A DNA stretch of 20,000 bases from an uncultured virus (IMG/VR IMGVR_UViG_3300024358_000470). Taxonomy: Duplodnaviria > Heunggongvirae > Uroviricota > Caudoviricetes. The stretch is taken from the IMG/VR virus record IMGVR_UViG_3300024358_000470. One strand, given 5' to 3'. Shown here piece by piece: positions 3,050-13,574 of this stretch. Below the pieces are notes generated by a model. It was given only the letters and a program-made list of their open reading frames with translations. It searched no databases and was not told the origin of the DNA. The translations under genes were made by a program, and so were the position numbers. Position 1 is the stretch's first letter; every line of letters begins with the position of its first letter.

Positions 3050-3324
3050 GCACTGCTGGTATGCTAGGGCAGTTCGCAATTGCCCTTCAAGAACTTGGGT
3101 GGAATGCTGATGATGAAATCTCGGTGGAGATTGGAGGAGTAGCAGTAACAGGAACTGCTACCAGTCCAAATGCAAATCCAAAATGGGCAAAACCATTTGG
3201 AACTGTATCCTACCAAAACGATGCTTTCATCGTAATTAAAAACAAATCGAGGAACCCAGTTGTTCCTTCACAACCAAATCCTGAACTTAAACAACACCAC
3301 CTTTATCAAGGAGAAAACAAATGA
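3046..3324 (+). CDS. Hypothetical protein (92 aa)
   Basis: ORF overlaps the petF stop (GTGA) and the next ATG (ATGA); no recognisable motif. Confidence 0.7.
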
Positions 3325-3440
3325 AAAATCTTTTTACTGAAAAAGCTGAGCGTATTAATGGTTGGTTTGCAATGATTGGTTTTGTTGCAGCCGCTGGTTC
3401 TTATCTTACTACCGGTCAAATTATCCCCGGTGTGTTTTGA
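3321..3440 (+). CDS. hli: High-light-inducible protein (39 aa), absent from the ORF track
   Basis: [39 protein letters not shown]; AExxNGxxAMIGF and TGQIIPG motifs; AGGAG RBS. Confidence 0.93.
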   Translation: MKNLFTEKAERINGWFAMIGFVAAAGSYLTTGQIIPGVF

Positions 3441-3451
3441 TAGAGGTCAAA

Positions 3452-3979
3452 ATGCGTAAAGAGCAATATCAAGTTCCACAAGTACAATTTGTATTCCGTG
3501 AGAATAGTGAGTTTGTAAATCGTACATCCGCAGAACTATTCAATGGAAAGCGTGTGGTCATTTTTAGCCTGCCTGGTGCTTTCACTCCTACTTGCAGTGC
3601 CTATCAGCTACCTGGATTCGAAGAGAAATACGACGACTTTATTGGTAGTGGCATCGACGCTATTTACTGCATCTCTGTTAATGATGGGTTTGTGATGAAT
3701 GCCTGGGCACAAGACCAGAACATTGAGAAAGTAAAACTCATTCCAGATGGAAATGCATATTTCACACGCTCTATGGGAATGCTTGTTAGTAAGTCCAACC
3801 TTGGTTTCGGTGATCGCTCTTGGCGTTATGCTGCAGTCGTGGATAACGGAATCATCGAGAAACTGTTTGTTGAACCAGGACAGCGCGATAATGCCCCTGA
3901 AGATCCTTATGTTGAGACTACTCCAGAAAATGTTTTTGAATATGTAAAATCTACGGTTCGAGAAACTGTTACTGCCTGA
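3452..3979 (+). CDS. Peroxiredoxin (Prx5/type II, redoxin family)
   Basis: LPGAFTPTCS, SVNDGFVMNAW, DGN..FT..MGM, RSWRYA; start moved to ATG 3452 with GAGG RBS. Confidence 0.93.
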   Translation: MRKEQYQVPQVQFVFRENSEFVNRTSAELFNGKRVVIFSLPGAFTPTCSAYQLPGFEEKYDDFIGSGIDAIYCISVNDGFVMNAWAQDQNIEKVKLIPDGNAYFTRSMGMLVSKSNLGFGDRSWRYAAVVDNGIIEKLFVEPGQRDNAPEDPYVETTPENVFEYVKSTVRETVTA

Positions 3980-3987
3980 AGATAATC

Positions 3988-4012
3988 AAGCGCCCAAAAA
4001 GGCGCTTTTTTT
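3988..4012 (+). terminator. Rho-independent terminator
   Basis: AAGCGCC-CAAAAA-GGCGCTT plus T-run. Confidence 0.8.
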
Positions 4013-4019
4013 ATAAATA
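4012..4019 (+). promoter_or_regulatory. T4-type late promoter
   Basis: TATAAATA 25 nt upstream of the peptidase ATG. Confidence 0.75.
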
Positions 4020-4044
4020 TCTTCAGTGTTTATAGAGATAATCC

Positions 4045-4716
4045 ATGACCCTAGATCTTCATAACTTTTTTAAGTTTTATGATGATAGCAATTCAAATCA
4101 TGTTGCAGCGGTTCAGTGGTTAGAAGATAATCTTCCTCCCCAATTTTTAGACGATGCGGAGACAGATTGGATTGGAATTTTTAGAACCAAACCCCCTACA
4201 CCAGCGGTTCTAAACGTTCCATATTTCAATCAAGTAGATAACTACAGAGATGCACATAGAACTTGCAACTCTTCATCGTGCGCTATGTGTCTTGCGTTCC
4301 TCAAGCCAGGAAGCATTAAAGGTGACGATGAATACGTCAAGAAAGTATTTGCGATTGGTGATACAACGGACCATGCCGTACAGACGAAGGTTCTGGCAGG
4401 TTATGGCGTTAAGTCACACTTTAGTTACAATCTATCTTTTGCTGATATTGATAAAAGTTTGGACGCTGGGAAGCCCGTTGTTATTGGCATACTCCATAGG
4501 GGTTCTCTTTCTGCACCTACTGGTGGGCACATGTGCGTTGTAATTGGTAAGACTCCAGACGGAAAAGGATATTACGTTAATGACCCATATGGATCATTGA
4601 ATGATAACTATACTGGTCCTGTAACTAACGGTAAGAAAACAATCTATACCAAAGCAGTTCTTAAGCACCGTTGGTGTCCAGGAGGCAATGATGGGTGGGG
4701 CAGAATCTTCGATTAG
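4045..4716 (+). CDS. Peptidase C39-like cysteine peptidase with an N-terminal accessory domain
   Basis: VPYFNQ..CNSSSCAM (Cys), GGHMCVVIG (His), YYVNDP (Asp). Confidence 0.8.
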   Translation: MTLDLHNFFKFYDDSNSNHVAAVQWLEDNLPPQFLDDAETDWIGIFRTKPPTPAVLNVPYFNQVDNYRDAHRTCNSSSCAMCLAFLKPGSIKGDDEYVKKVFAIGDTTDHAVQTKVLAGYGVKSHFSYNLSFADIDKSLDAGKPVVIGILHRGSLSAPTGGHMCVVIGKTPDGKGYYVNDPYGSLNDNYTGPVTNGKKTIYTKAVLKHRWCPGGNDGWGRIFD

Positions 4717-4729
4717 ATTTAAGGCAAAA

Positions 4730-4837
4730 ATGCTTAAAGTGATCAAAGAACTTACAAATCATGGAAAGCACGTAGAAGCAAACGAACTTTATCAACGGTA
4801 TTTCGGAGAAAACAATGGCAAGAATCGATTTACATAA
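4730..4837 (+). CDS. Possible small protein (35 aa, MLKVIKELTNHGKHVEANELYQRYFGENNGKNRFT)
   Basis: Open frame filling the gap; overlaps the lysozyme start by 23 nt. Confidence 0.3.
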   Translation: MLKVIKELTNHGKHVEANELYQRYFGENNGKNRFT

Positions 4838-5483
4838 CTTCTTCAAGTTTTATGACGAGAAGAACCCCAACCACGTTAAAGCAGTGCAGTGGTTGGAAGA
4901 TAACCTCCCAGTCAAATATCTAGAAGATAATATTGATTGGGCGGAGATTTATAGAGGAAAAAAGACTAGTGCTGCACCAGCAACCACTGCTGCTGCAGCT
5001 CCTGTAACAGGTGGTGATGATGTTCCTCAAATGGGCATCAAGTTAATCAAAGAGTTTGAGGGATGTCATCTGAAGGCATACCCAGACCCCTTGACTGGTG
5101 GACTTCCAATCACTATTGGTTGGGGATCTACTCGCAAGAAGGATGGATCACCCTTCAAAATGGGTGATACCCTAACACAGGCAGAAGCAGATGAACTTCT
5201 TATCGAACAATGTAAGAAAGAGTTCCTTCCTGCTCTGCGTAAAATCCCTCATTGGAATGAAATGTCAGATGGAAAAAGAGGCGCTCTGCTCAGCTTTGCT
5301 TATAATCTTGGTGCCGGTTTTTACGGTGGCGATAACTTTAATACTATTACTAAACGCTTGAAAAATAAGGAGTGGGATTTAGTTCCTGATGCTCTTTATC
5401 TCTATCGCAATCCTGGTTCTAATGTAGAAGCAGGACTTGCACGTAGAAGAAAAGCAGAGGGTGAATCCTGGAAGAAGGGATAA
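4815..5483 (+). CDS. Phage lysozyme / endolysin (GH24)
   Basis: LIKEFEGCHLKAYPD..TIGWG catalytic E/D/T motif, ALLSFAYNLG, GLARRRKAE. Confidence 0.92.
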   Translation: MARIDLHNFFKFYDEKNPNHVKAVQWLEDNLPVKYLEDNIDWAEIYRGKKTSAAPATTAAAAPVTGGDDVPQMGIKLIKEFEGCHLKAYPDPLTGGLPITIGWGSTRKKDGSPFKMGDTLTQAEADELLIEQCKKEFLPALRKIPHWNEMSDGKRGALLSFAYNLGAGFYGGDNFNTITKRLKNKEWDLVPDALYLYRNPGSNVEAGLARRRKAEGESWKKG

Positions 5484-5486
5484 ATA
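5480..5486 (+). promoter_or_regulatory. Late-promoter-like element
   Basis: ATAAATA overlapping the lysozyme stop, ahead of a 145-nt intergenic leader. Confidence 0.5.
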
Positions 5487-5501
5487 GTTACAATCATAAC
5501 T

Positions 5502-5631
5502 GATTCTTGATCTTAAATGGTCTGAATCTACATAGTCCGAATCCTCTGTGATTCGGTGATTACTTTACTTTTAAACATAACTTCGGTTTGTTTTGTTTAG
5601 TACACACTGAACTCACAGAGGACTTTCTATG
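5502..5631 (+). promoter_or_regulatory. Structured 5' leader RNA with anti-Shine-Dalgarno pairing
   Basis: Three hairpins (one with a cUUCGg tetraloop) and a 10-bp complement TCCTCTGTGA/TCACAGAGGA covering the RBS. Confidence 0.55.
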
Positions 5632-7755
5632 TCTTACGCTACAAGGGCGCTTGCTGTAGCGTCTGCTCTTTTAATGGGGGCATCAACAGCAGCATTAGCA
5701 GAAACAATATCTGGAACAGATTTCGAGACTGGAGATACTTCAGGATGGAATACTGGAACTCAAACAGGAACATTAGATGCCACAATCGACGGAGGAGGAA
5801 CTGGTGTTAGTGTCGTAGATAATCCAGTTATCTTTAATGCCGGTTCTTTCCCAGCACAAGGAAGTCCAACATTACAAGATGGTTCTCCTAATCCATATTA
5901 CGCACCCGCAGTAACACCAACCACTTGGGAGTTTGCTCCTTACGGAACCGCAGGTGCAGCACTACAACCAAATGGACAGCAAACATTCGACCAGGCAACA
6001 GAAGCACTTGGTTTAACCGCAGAACAAAATCAAGCAATAAGAGACCTTCTTATTCAACAGCAACAAGCATCTGGACTTGGAAATCCAAATCCTACTGATG
6101 CTGCTTGGATTACAAAATCAGTCACTTTGGAGACTGGAAAAGTTTATACAATGTCTTGGAACTACATTGGAACGGACTATGTTCCTTTCAATGATGGTTC
6201 TATTACTTCACTTGTTTATCAAGGAACTGGAACTTCTCCATCAGTAACAGTTAATAACCAACTTCAAAACTATGCATTACTTGGATTTACTAATCCAGGA
6301 ACTGGTGATTATTCAACAGGTTCTTTTGGTTCTACTGGATGGCAGTATTCAACTTATCAAGTAGGTGCTAATGGTGATTATCTCTTGGGATTTGCAGTAT
6401 TCAACCTTGGAGATACCGCACTATCACCAGTTCTTTTAGTTGATAGTCAACCTGGAACTACAACAGCAAATGGTGAAGAATTCACTCCTGTTGCTCCAAA
6501 TAATCCAGATGCTCCATCTGTTGATGAGGTAGCACCAACTCCAACTCCTACACCAGAGCCAACTCCTGAACCTACACCAGAGCCAACTCCCGAACCAACT
6601 CCTGAACCTACACCAGAGCCAACTCCCGAACCAACTCCTGAACCTACACCAGAACCAGAACCAACACCAGAGCCAACTCCTGAACCCACTCCTGCTCCTG
6701 CTCCTGAACCTACACCAGAGCCAACTCCTGAACCACAACCACCAACATTATTAAACTCTGTGACTGTTCCTGCACCAGGACTTCCAGTTGTTGTTACCAC
6801 AGAAGTAACTCATAAGGCATCTGAGAAGGATGGAGTTCAAAAGATTAGAAGAGACTTTGCAACCACAACTCAAACTCCTTTATTAAGACAGGATACTTAT
6901 AGTGATGGAACCGTTGTAGCATCATTACTTCTTTCTGTTGATATTGAAAATAATCATGATGTTCTTTCTGGACGCACTGACCAGCATGAAGTTTTAGATA
7001 AGATTGGTGGTGGATTACAAAATCTGTTTATTTACGAACCAACTGAACCAACCACAGACAGAGTAAGAGTATTCAATAACAACTATTATGCCTGGTCTTC
7101 TGGTGATTATGGATACAATGGTAAGACTTTAATCATTGGTGGTGGATTAGAGATTGATATTAAACCAACCTGGACTATAGGTGGTCAATATAATAATATG
7201 AACATTGATTTGGGTGGTGTTGATAGTACTTCTAAACTCCTCAAAAATCATTATGGAATATTCAATATGTTCCGTGGAAATACATTCTCACTCTTAACAA
7301 ATGCTGGATACTCCCAGAACAAATATAATGTATCCAGAAATGTTCAGAGTGTCTTCAATAATGAAAGTTCAACAGAAGGAAAAGAGTGGTTTGTAAATAA
7401 CAGACTATTCTGGCATCTCAATAAGAATGTAACTCCATTTGTTGGATACACTGTTGGTAACTATCAGAGAGATGGATTTACTGAGAAAGGTTCTATTCAA
7501 TCCAGAAGAACTGTTGATGCTATAAACAAAACTTCACATTCTGGTGAGGTAGGTCTAAATATTTCACACCGTTTTGGTGGAAAGAAAAAGGATTTATTTG
7601 GAGTAACTATTGGTGGTTCTTATGAAACCAGTGGAATGATTGAAGCATCTGCTTCTGTTGATTATAAGGAAATGGTTATTATTGAAGGAATACATCAAAT
7701 TAATGATGGAGTTTCTAACACAGCAGTATCTGCAAAACTTAAATTTAAGTTCTGA
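5629..7755 (+). CDS. Autotransporter-like outer-membrane protein: signal peptide, beta-rich N-terminal domain, Pro-Thr-Pro-Glu linker, C-terminal beta-barrel
   Basis: Sec signal ending ALA-E; (PTPE)n linker; C-terminal ~250 aa of amphipathic strands (e.g. VTPFVGYT..YQRDGFTEKG) ending in KLKFKF. Confidence 0.7.
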   Translation: MSYATRALAVASALLMGASTAALAETISGTDFETGDTSGWNTGTQTGTLDATIDGGGTGVSVVDNPVIFNAGSFPAQGSPTLQDGSPNPYYAPAVTPTTWEFAPYGTAGAALQPNGQQTFDQATEALGLTAEQNQAIRDLLIQQQQASGLGNPNPTDAAWITKSVTLETGKVYTMSWNYIGTDYVPFNDGSITSLVYQGTGTSPSVTVNNQLQNYALLGFTNPGTGDYSTGSFGSTGWQYSTYQVGANGDYLLGFAVFNLGDTALSPVLLVDSQPGTTTANGEEFTPVAPNNPDAPSVDEVAPTPTPTPEPTPEPTPEPTPEPTPEPTPEPTPEPTPEPTPEPEPTPEPTPEPTPAPAPEPTPEPTPEPQPPTLLNSVTVPAPGLPVVVTTEVTHKASEKDGVQKIRRDFATTTQTPLLRQDTYSDGTVVASLLLSVDIENNHDVLSGRTDQHEVLDKIGGGLQNLFIYEPTEPTTDRVRVFNNNYYAWSSGDYGYNGKTLIIGGGLEIDIKPTWTIGGQYNNMNIDLGGVDSTSKLLKNHYGIFNMFRGNTFSLLTNAGYSQNKYNVSRNVQSVFNNESSTEGKEWFVNNRLFWHLNKNVTPFVGYTVGNYQRDGFTEKGSIQSRRTVDAINKTSHSGEVGLNISHRFGGKKKDLFGVTIGGSYETSGMIEASASVDYKEMVIIEGIHQINDGVSNTAVSAKLKFKF
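6535..6743 (+). repeat. Tandem 12-bp-unit coding repeat (PTPE/PEPT linker)
   Basis: Recurrent CCAACTCCTGAA / CCTACACCAGAG units. Confidence 0.95.
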
Positions 7756-12297: not shown

Positions 12298-12331
12298 TTG
12301 ACACAGGCGGCAAACCGTAGTATGATAAATA
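12298..12331 (+). promoter_or_regulatory. psbA promoter: sigma70 boxes with an overlapping late-like element
   Basis: TTGACA (12298)-17 nt-TATGAT (12321); ATAAATA at 12325. Confidence 0.75.
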
Positions 12332-12384
12332 GGTAAACAAATGTTACGGAACGCAACGTTCCCTTAACATTGTTAGACACCCGA

Positions 12385-12480
12385 TAACCGAGACCTATGG
12401 GTGTATAAATTACGTCTCTCATATCCCCGCTAAGGGTGCGGGGAGCATAGTATCTCCACCATTTCCCTGATGGTCTTACT
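12385..12480 (+). ncRNA. Structured psbA 5'-UTR RNA, probably the PhotoRC-II-like motif
   Basis: GAGAC/GTCTC stem; TCCCCGC-TAAGGGT-GCGGGGA and ACCAT-TTCCCTG-ATGGT hairpins with complementary loops; lies directly upstream of a phage psbA. Confidence 0.6.
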
Positions 12481-12494
12481 AACTGCTTAAAACA

Positions 12495-13574
12495 ATGACT
12501 GCTACAATTTCACGTCAACGACAATCGAATACTTGGGAACAATTCTGCAACTGGGTCACATCAACCGATAATCGTCTTTATGTCGGTTGGTTCGGAGTCC
12601 TCATGATTCCTTGCCTGCTTGCTGCTACGACTTGTTTCATCATCGCATTCATCGGTGCTCCCCCAGTGGACATTGATGGTATCCGTGAACCCGTTGCTGG
12701 TTCACTCATGTACGGAAACAACATCATCTCTGGTGCTGTTATTCCTTCGTCCAACGCGATTGGACTGCACTTTTATCCCATCTGGGAAGCTGCTTCGCTT
12801 GATGAGTGGCTTTACAACGGTGGTCCTTTCCAACTTGTAGTGTTCCACTTCCTTATCGGTATCTACGCTTACATGGGTCGTGAATGGGAACTTTCATACC
12901 GTCTTGGTATGCGTCCTTGGATCTGTGTTGCTTACTCTGCACCTGTGGCTGCTGCTTCTGCTGTGTTCCTGGTGTATCCTTTCGGTCAAGGTTCTTTCTC
13001 TGATGCGATGCCTCTGGGTATCTCTGGTACGTTCAACTATATGCTTGTGTTCCAGGCAGAGCACAACATCCTGATGCACCCCTTCCACATGCTTGGTGTG
13101 GCTGGTGTCTTTGGAGGTTCTCTGTTCAGTGCTATGCACGGTTCTCTGGTTACTTCCTCACTGGTTCGTGAAACCACTGAGAACGAGTCACAGAACTATG
13201 GTTACAAGTTTGGTCAAGAAGAAGAGACCTATAACATCGTTGCTGCTCACGGTTATTTCGGACGCCTTATTTTCCAATATGCTTCCTTTAATAACTCACG
13301 TTCGCTGCACTTCTTCCTTGCTGCATGGCCTGTAGTTGGTATCTGGTTCACTGCTCTTGGTGTTAGCACCATGGCATTCAACCTCAACGGTTTCAACTTT
13401 AACCAGTCCATCATTGATTCACAGGGTCGTGTCCTCAACACTTGGGCAGATGTTCTGAACCGTGCTGGACTCGGGCTCGAGGTGATGCACGAAAGGAATG
13501 CACACAATTTCCCTCTGGATCTTGCTGCTGCTAGCAACACTCCTGTTGCCCTTACTGCACCCGCAATCGGTTGA
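12495..13574 (+). CDS. psbA: Photosystem II D1 protein, intronless, Glu130 (high-light-type) form
   Basis: [50 protein letters not shown]. Confidence 0.99.

Follow-up and report, generated by a model that had tools for sequence, protein, structure and literature searches.

In a 20,000-nucleotide (nt) stretch of uncultured-virus DNA (IMG/VR record IMGVR_UViG_3300024358_000470), hereafter the window, a structured RNA leader lies in the 145-nt gap (5484–5628) between a phage lysozyme gene and a gene for a secreted autotransporter. The window is part of a 99-kb contig, and its source phage is a T4-like cyanomyovirus. We hold with moderate confidence that the element is a two-state leader of a late autotransporter mRNA that masks the ribosome binding site (RBS), with a small local hairpin, hairpin 2, giving a transient ON state. 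The structure is real and conserved, is undescribed as a family, and works on a known principle. An initial annotation, made from the letters of the window, had described a riboswitch-like leader capable of sequestering the RBS, in a 145-nt gap after an ATAAATA motif. The gap and the motif (5480–5486) are where it placed them, and the leader is indeed a structured, plus-strand RNA that buries the Shine-Dalgarno (SD) sequence and the AUG. The ligand-sensing sense of ‘riboswitch-like’ is not supported, as no aptamer-like core is conserved. The features of the leader and its gene are listed below; type A denotes leaders built on the window’s scaffold, and MFE is the minimum free energy fold.

5479–5486, plus strand: T4-type late-promoter-like motif GATAAATA, with a probable transcript start at ~5492–5494
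5502–5528, plus strand: hairpin 1, 5′-proximal (5 + 4 bp); 100% of cells paired in 59 distinct type A leaders, with one-sided changes only
5530–5535, plus strand: ACAUAG, the 5′ strand of the outer helix and partner of CUAUGU at the start codon (MFE)
5537–5556, plus strand: hairpin 2, the competitor that ties up the anti-RBS strand, a putative ON-state or transient fold (nascent-chain MFE; conservation)
5542–5558, plus strand: 5′ arm of the long helix, the anti-RBS strand (MFE; covariation)
5561–5602, plus strand: distal part of the long hairpin, including hairpin 3 at 5573–5593 (MFE; dispensable in LC03-type leaders)
5605–5622, plus strand: 3′ arm of the long helix, which holds the SD sequence AGAGGA at 5617–5622 (MFE; covariation)
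5623–5628, plus strand: U-rich spacer from the helix to the AUG (U count across 115 leaders)
5627–5632, plus strand: 3′ strand of the outer helix, CUAUGU, which covers the start codon at 5629–5631 (MFE)
5629–7755, plus strand: putatively regulated gene, encoding a 708-amino acid (aa) secreted autotransporter (Pfam PF03797; AlphaFold2 (AF2) fold match)

The MFE fold of 5484–5640 consists of hairpin 1 followed by a single hairpin of ~100 nt (5530–5632). This long hairpin is closed by the outer helix ACAUAG (5530–5535)/CUAUGU (5627–5632) and continues through GA/UU pairs, a 17-bp helix between 5542–5558 and 5605–5622 in which C5612 is bulged, and distal stems. All three hairpins reported in the initial annotation can be read directly from the sequence: hairpin 1 pairs GATTC (5502–5506) with GAATC (5524–5528) and GATC (5509–5512) with GGTC (5519–5522), hairpin 2 pairs CCGAATC (5537–5543) with GATTCGG (5550–5556) around a 6-nt loop, and hairpin 3 (5573–5593) is capped by C5581(UUCG)G5586. 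The 10-nt complement it had pointed to is equally exact, TCCTCTGTGA at 5542–5551 being the reverse complement of TCACAGAGGA at 5613–5622, which contains the SD sequence; AGAGGA ends 6 nt 5′ of the ATG at 5629. Its match of CATAG (5531–5535) to CTATG (5627–5631) over the start codon extends to a 6-bp helix. The hairpin is more extensive than first described, goes beyond chance, and buries both the SD sequence and the AUG. The MFE is −47.6 kcal/mol, compared with −25.4 ± 3.6 kcal/mol for 200 dinucleotide shuffles (z = −6.1), none of which folded as well. Among the −120 to +12 regions of the 133 predicted genes on the 99-kb contig, the autotransporter leader has the lowest MFE (−40.5), and its mean pairing probability over the RBS (−15 to +3), 0.85, is the highest among the 25 lowest-MFE leaders listed. 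When 120-nt windows from both strands of the contig were ranked by raw MFE, the leader came 129th of 13,200.

Leaders of relatives were gathered from viral contigs by searches with protein passengers and with a leader pattern. Among cultured phages, DSL-LC02 and DSL-LC03 (family Kyanoviridae), both from freshwater Synechococcus, are closest to the source phage. The N-terminal passenger of the window protein retrieved 80 loci, a 21-nt leader pattern 110 loci, and the LC03 and LC02 protein passengers 45 and 80 loci, respectively. At 109 of the 110 pattern loci, the ATG of an MSY... signal peptide or a close variant of it lies 69–73 nt downstream. Removal of duplicates and of 6 loci for which an internal Met had been chosen left 118 distinct leaders, and in the MFE folds of 115 of them a long helix ends at or across the AUG. 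These 115 hairpin leaders comprise the type A scaffold, in several classes that have entirely different arms, and type B, which is unrelated to type A in sequence and shares its layout: late motif, small hairpin, ~22-bp hairpin, U-run, and AUG. Orthologous genes can carry leaders of unrelated sequence (type B) or leaders in which the arms and distal part are swapped (the L205, L226, and L256 classes). Hairpin 1 and a GGUGA(A/U)UAC junction are strongly conserved, with the inner stem of hairpin 1 changed from GAUC/GGUC to GAAC/GUUC in the L205 class (read by eye). Many relatives have 20 contiguous long-helix pairs compared with the 17 bp of the window. The UUCG loop of hairpin 3 is variable, reading UUUA in many relatives, and LC03 is without hairpin 3 altogether.

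The long helix of the leader described in the initial annotation covaries among relatives, both within type A and between classes. Across the 59 distinct type A leaders, 97.3% of long-helix cells are paired, and three pairs and 19 cells are changed on both sides. The resulting covariation score was equaled by none of 500 shuffles, and slid controls were only 28–44% paired. In the outer helix, five of the six pairs form in at least 55 of the 59 sequences, with no double-sided change. Between classes, the arms have other sequences and are again complementary (UACUUCGGUACUUGGUG/CACCAAUUACCGAAGUA, UUCCGUGAUUUGGUG/CAUCAAGUCACGGAA, and AUCCGUGACUAGGUG/CACUUAGUCACGGAU), as is the type B arm pair (AAGGUGAGUUG../..CAACUCACCUU). 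Whole helix segments have also been swapped with complementarity kept (..CCUCUGUGA../..UCACAGAGG.., ..UACUUCGGUA../..UACCGAAGUA.., and ..UUCCGUGA../..UCACGGAA..), and type B shows the same kind of exchange (ACGGUG/CACCGU, AAGGUG/CACCUU, and ACAGUG/CACUGU). Many of the long-helix pairs are G-U (columns 75:165 in 50 of the 59 sequences, 84:155 in 40, and 91:147 in 57), which identifies the structure as a plus-strand RNA. A DNA-level inverted repeat or cruciform was disfavored, since neither DNA nor the opposite strand would pair at the positions of the many G-U pairs.

Hairpin 2 and the long helix share one strand and are mutually exclusive in computed folds, as are the helices of a riboswitch-type expression platform. 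The initial annotation had left a choice between a pseudoknot, formed by the hairpin 2 loop and the RBS, and a mutually exclusive helix. The exclusive helix stands, with both competing folds computed and both kept in relatives; the pseudoknot falls as a general reading because the hairpin 2 loop of relatives has only 3–4 nt (UUCG in L205; CUC or UCU in L033 and LC03), too few for pairing with the RBS. Hairpin 2 is paired in 411 of 413 cells (99.5%) in the 59 type A leaders, and other classes rebuild a 5′-arm hairpin as AGUAC(UUCG)GUACU, UCACG..CGUGA, AGUCA(UCCG)UGACU, or GUCC(UCU)GGAC. When folded in isolation, the 5′ arm averages −7.8 kcal/mol and the 3′ arm −2.3 kcal/mol, the 5′ arm being the more stable in 114 of 115 leaders. 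Wobble pairs are placed such that the 5′ arm alone is self-complementary, whereas the long helix itself needs no self-complementary arms. All 115 hairpin leaders have at least four U residues at −9 to −1 (mean 5.16, compared with 2.67 for 132 other contig genes), and the region before the ATG, which is A-rich in other contig genes, is U-rich in hairpin leaders of both sequence types. Because only the 5′ arm is kept self-complementary across classes, the competitor hairpin appears to be under selection, together with an RBS that is free of structure in the alternative state.

The computed folding order places hairpin 2 first. As long as the growing chain ends between 5558 and ~5606, hairpin 2 is its MFE structure, and another fold takes over when synthesis has reached 5610 or beyond. 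For the full-length leader, the closed fold has an energy of −46.1 kcal/mol and the best hairpin-2 fold one of −30.6 kcal/mol, and a heuristic direct-path estimate, which is an upper bound, puts the barrier for the window leader at ~10 kcal/mol. Across 86 leaders, the median difference between closed and open folds is 17.5 kcal/mol and the median barrier 9.5 kcal/mol. An RNA thermometer was considered and rejected: the mean pairing probability of 5615–5631 falls only from 0.885 at 10°C to 0.846 at 37°C and 0.75 at 65°C, and since the RBS is still paired throughout this range, the leader is not a thermometer.

We propose that the gap encodes a 5′ untranslated leader of ~136 nt on a late cyanomyovirus autotransporter mRNA. 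In the OFF state, which would prevail at equilibrium, a helix of 17–20 bp would pair the anti-RBS strand with the SD region and the 6-bp helix would close the AUG, blocking the ribosome. During transcription, the self-complementary anti-RBS strand would fold first into hairpin 2 and would thereby leave the U-rich, unstructured RBS, which is made later, free in a short-lived or stabilizable ON state. As the closed state hides the RBS at equilibrium, translation would be limited to a brief window on nascent or fresh mRNA, or to conditions under which some factor keeps hairpin 2 in place or unwinds the long helix. The predicted effect is that output of the outer-membrane protein is kept low or timed late in infection. 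As to the trigger, our best guess, by analogy, is a folding timer of the MS2 maturation-gene type.

The position of the late motif bears on which parts of the structure the mRNA contains. ATAAATA is the core of the T4-type late promoter in the T4 account we cite here (PMC3014915). In the window it overlaps the lysozyme stop codon, 44 nt before the long hairpin begins, and relatives retain it even where the lysozyme stop codon has moved away (GATGATAAATAG, GATGACTAAATAG, and TTAAGATAAATAC). No ATAAATA is present in 5487–5628; the nearest look-alike there, TTTAAACA, sits in a loop and has two mismatches to TATAAATA. With the late motif upstream of hairpin 1 and the long hairpin, both arms are probably in the late mRNA, which most likely starts near 5493. 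The 99-kb contig has 27 copies of ATAAATA, of which 20 lie within 200 nt 5′ of a same-strand predicted start and 15 lie 16–33 nt before an ATG. A long structured leader follows the motif at two genes only, psbA (163 nt, PhotoRC-II) and the autotransporter gene (142 nt), a comparison from which three further copies, 90–127 nt before an ATG, were left out. PhotoRC-II (RF01717), a cyanophage cis-regulatory candidate ahead of psbA, resembles the autotransporter leader in being a structured leader behind a late-type motif, but it is unrelated in sequence and structure and precedes a different gene.

The closest parallel for the proposed timer is the leader of the MS2 maturation gene, in which an upstream strand, held at first in a metastable hairpin, goes on to pair with the SD sequence (PMC4615214). 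The two systems share a long-distance pairing of the SD sequence with an upstream strand, here 5542–5558 with 5605–5622, and the presence of hairpins between the two strands; in both, low amounts of the protein may suffice. The early capture of the upstream strand in a small co-transcriptional, metastable hairpin is likewise common to both, though here it comes from calculation and is weak or absent in type B. Unlike MS2, whose RNA genome is copied by a replicase, the present leader belongs to a T4-like DNA phage and would be transcribed by the host RNA polymerase. It has no sequence or Rfam relationship to the MS2 leader, its AUG is also paired, a U-run follows its helix, and a refolding slow enough for ribosomes to load, on which a leader of the MS2 type depends, may be ascribed to it by analogy. 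Inhibitory hairpins at translation initiation regions have also been described, in the account cited above, for T4 e, soc, 49, and I-TevI (PMC3014915), and as in those genes the SD sequence and the AUG are paired in a helix. There, however, late transcripts escape the block because their promoter is embedded in the DNA for the 5′ strand (PMC3014915), whereas here the motif precedes the entire structure, and the leader has a conserved competitor hairpin instead. Finally, two exclusive helices with a shared strand, and an RBS-masking helix followed by a U-run, are also features of riboswitch and attenuator platforms, but the leader showed no conserved ligand-binding domain or leader peptide, and neither a T-box nor a known protein site.

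Several observations weigh against the two-state reading. Two leaders lack the hairpin, L213, whose late motif lies 25 nt before the ATG, and L237, which has a different signal peptide and a GGAGG SD sequence; in L202 the hairpin is weak. Type B and the L205 class are without a recognizable SD sequence, and their helix still ends at or across the AUG. Judged across these leaders, it is the hiding of the landing site and AUG that is conserved rather than the SD sequence, and ‘SD sequestration’ is too narrow a term. Type B also lacks a strong local 5′-arm hairpin (z ~0), its only possible swap being with the 3′ strand of its first hairpin. Even within type A, support for hairpin 2 is mostly conservation, with a double-sided change in a single cell and a score that 10 of 500 shuffles also reached. 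The estimated barrier of ~10 kcal/mol suggests refolding within seconds, which would make for a short timer. The conserved U-run after the helix fits a terminator tail as well as it fits a landing pad for SD-poor starts. The stretch is contained, as assembled contigs, in 24 riverine metatranscriptome runs, and in three of the four runs compared a contig bridges 5484–5632 (X19, 3056–5843; X20, 3250–6071; X22, 4066–5704). X23 has a low-depth contig ending at 5612, and in X22 the contig changes at ~5690–5704, with a lower depth figure downstream. Such RNA-library contigs show only that the lysozyme gene, leader, and open reading frame (ORF) are contiguous in sequence, not the start, end, strand, or level of a transcript. 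The mechanism leans, moreover, on a transcript start, an effect on translation, and a choice between timer and trigger that we infer.

Among other explanations, a factor-triggered switch would have a trans-acting RNA, a protein, or a small ligand bind the 5′ arm or hairpin 2, or melt the helix, in the manner of small-RNA activation of the rpoS leader or of a riboswitch platform. Both mutually exclusive folds are conserved, as are hairpin 1 and the GGUGA(A/U)UAC junction, and with the closed state favored by ~15–17 kcal/mol, steady translation would need help. We nevertheless regard such a switch as unlikely. The comparison uncovered no aptamer whose unpaired nucleotides stay invariant, and arms, distal part, and even whole leaders are replaced between orthologues; a ligand riboswitch in particular is unlikely because no conserved aptamer survives between classes. 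The initial annotation had been unable to assign the element to a known RNA family, and Rfam agrees. In a scan of the window at Rfam 15 gathering thresholds the only match was PhotoRC-II (RF01717) at 12365–12458; within 5300–5800 the best match by E-value, mir-4637, scored 21.4 bits against a gathering score of 89, and the loci of eight relatives gave no match. Nor did an RNAduplex scan of the 99-kb contig (24,768 windows per arm; the rest of the phage genome and the host lay outside it) reveal a convincing or outstanding complementary partner, the best non-self duplexes being −25.8 kcal/mol for the 5′ arm, antisense in a coding region, and −28.3 kcal/mol for the 3′ arm. A transcription attenuator is rather unlikely too, and it could coexist with RBS masking. 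The long helix and U-run would then be an intrinsic terminator and hairpin 2 the antiterminator, with late transcripts mostly stopping at about the AUG except where hairpin 2 persists or becomes stabilized. The order of promoter, competitor hairpin, long hairpin, and U-run is the classic one, the U-rich run follows the helix in all 115 hairpin leaders of two unrelated sequence types, and type B has a chain of alternative pairings resembling 1:2, 2:3, and 3:4. The hairpin is, however, ~100 nt long, branched, and interrupted by internal loops, and the MFE fold pairs some of the U-run; a consensus terminator scan flagged hairpin 2 alone, with a poor tail, and not the long helix. The RNA-library contigs cross the leader into the ORF in three of the four runs, so that read-through sequence exists, with no amounts implied. 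A leader peptide was rejected, as the two-codon ORF at 5517 is not conserved and its ATG is missing in most relatives.

Processing or stabilization of the mRNA strikes us as quite improbable. Here, the 17–20-bp helix would be an RNase III-type site whose cleavage frees the RBS or splits the lysozyme and autotransporter messages, or the hairpins would protect the 5′ end. The helix is near-perfect over 17 bp in the window and reaches 20 contiguous pairs in many relatives, a length compatible with roughly two double-stranded RNA turns; the genes on either side of it are bridged by RNA-library contigs, and hairpin 1 is ~10 nt from the probable 5′ end. What this explanation leaves unaccounted for is the self-complementarity of the 5′ arm alone in 114 of 115 leaders and the ending of the helix at the AUG in all classes. 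Least probable by far are dual transcripts of the T4 e/soc type, of which only upstream read-through RNA would carry the inhibitory 5′ arm while late transcripts, starting inside the structure, would be freely translated. The phage is T4-like, the principle is documented for e, soc, 49, and I-TevI in the source already cited (PMC3014915), and RNA-library contigs do bridge the lysozyme gene and the leader. Yet the long hairpin begins 44 nt downstream of the only late-promoter-type motif, at 5479–5486, and 5487–5628 has no ATAAATA. A T4 e-type promoter within the hairpin was ruled out for want of a motif inside it, and since the late motif lies upstream of the structure, the classic T4 e/soc arrangement is ruled out as well.

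A wider reading may tentatively be offered: the leaders could be a new, widespread family of two-state ‘timer’ leaders in T4-like cyanophages, rationing the translation of a late outer-membrane autotransporter, whose gene neighbors those of the lysis enzymes, by co-transcriptional folding of the MS2 maturation-gene kind. The architecture would have been re-invented or rebuilt with unrelated sequences (type A, type B, and UUCG-hairpin classes), and it may also act as a transcription attenuator responsive to the condition of the infected cell. Regulation at the post-transcriptional level has hardly been explored in cyanophages, and candidate cis-acting RNAs such as PhotoRC-II are without a known mechanism. 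Lake and river viromes are rich in the present leader (110 exact-motif loci in addition to the other classes), which is tied to one type of gene, a phage autotransporter next to endolysins, and has evolutionary support for two folds. Its cultured carriers, DSL-LC02 and DSL-LC03, make it a tractable model, from which one could learn how an envelope protein that may do harm is rationed by T4-like phages, and whether the delayed-folding control of RNA phages operates on the mRNAs of DNA phages.

The 708-aa product of the ORF downstream of the leader begins with a signal-peptide-like sequence, continues through a passenger that belongs to no known family, a PT-rich linker, and a C-terminal beta-barrel domain, and ends in ...KFKF. 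Its C-terminal 310 aa match the Pfam Autotransporter family (PF03797) at 1e-14. In the AF2 model of the C-terminal domain (predicted local distance difference test, pLDDT, 75.6), the best fold matches are the translocator domains of NalP, EstA, and BrkA (E = 2e-10, TM score 0.65–0.72), and the barrel also matches EspP. By Pfam and predicted fold the ORF is a true autotransporter, in agreement with the type Va plan of signal peptide, passenger, and 12-strand C-terminal translocator barrel. A comparison of window positions 5479–5700 with L001, L002, and L193–L317 showed that the leader and signal peptide (MSY..ALLMGA..) form one conserved module before unrelated passengers, the window type on the one hand and the ‘HTNS’ type of LC02 and LC03 on the other, a pattern that suggests domain shuffling behind a fixed regulatory and secretion module. 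In the PT-rich (PEPT) repeat linker (window 6558–6595), 36 nt are skipped in RNA-library contig X19; the skip is a repeat-length variant between strains.

Upstream of the leader is the phage lysozyme gene:

4815–5483, plus strand: phage lysozyme/endolysin (Pfam PF00959, 1.9e-22; PHROG endolysin families)

The order C39-like peptidase (‘endolysin’), lysozyme, autotransporter (window 4045–7755) is the same in DSL-LC02 and DSL-LC03 (L001, 1971–5673; L002, 2992–6184), and from this kept order the autotransporter may be part of a lysis- or envelope-related late cassette. At ~3985–4044, a GC-rich hairpin with a T-run (AAGCGCCC..GGCGCTTTTTTT) is followed directly by TATAAATA, 25 nt before the peptidase gene, and on its sequence this is a terminator/late-promoter pair. 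The window also encodes pstS-like, peroxiredoxin, and AdoHcy-hydrolase genes, as well as psbA (12495–13574), with the PhotoRC-II RNA ahead of it; an ATAAATA at 12325 precedes both PhotoRC-II (12365–12458) and psbA. Outside the window, on the minus strand of the contig at a gene start near 97713, ATAAATA is followed directly by a GAGGAG..CUCCUC hairpin, a run of seven U, and the ATG. The predicted late start of that gene would lie within the 5′ arm of its hairpin, which would be a T4 e-like arrangement.

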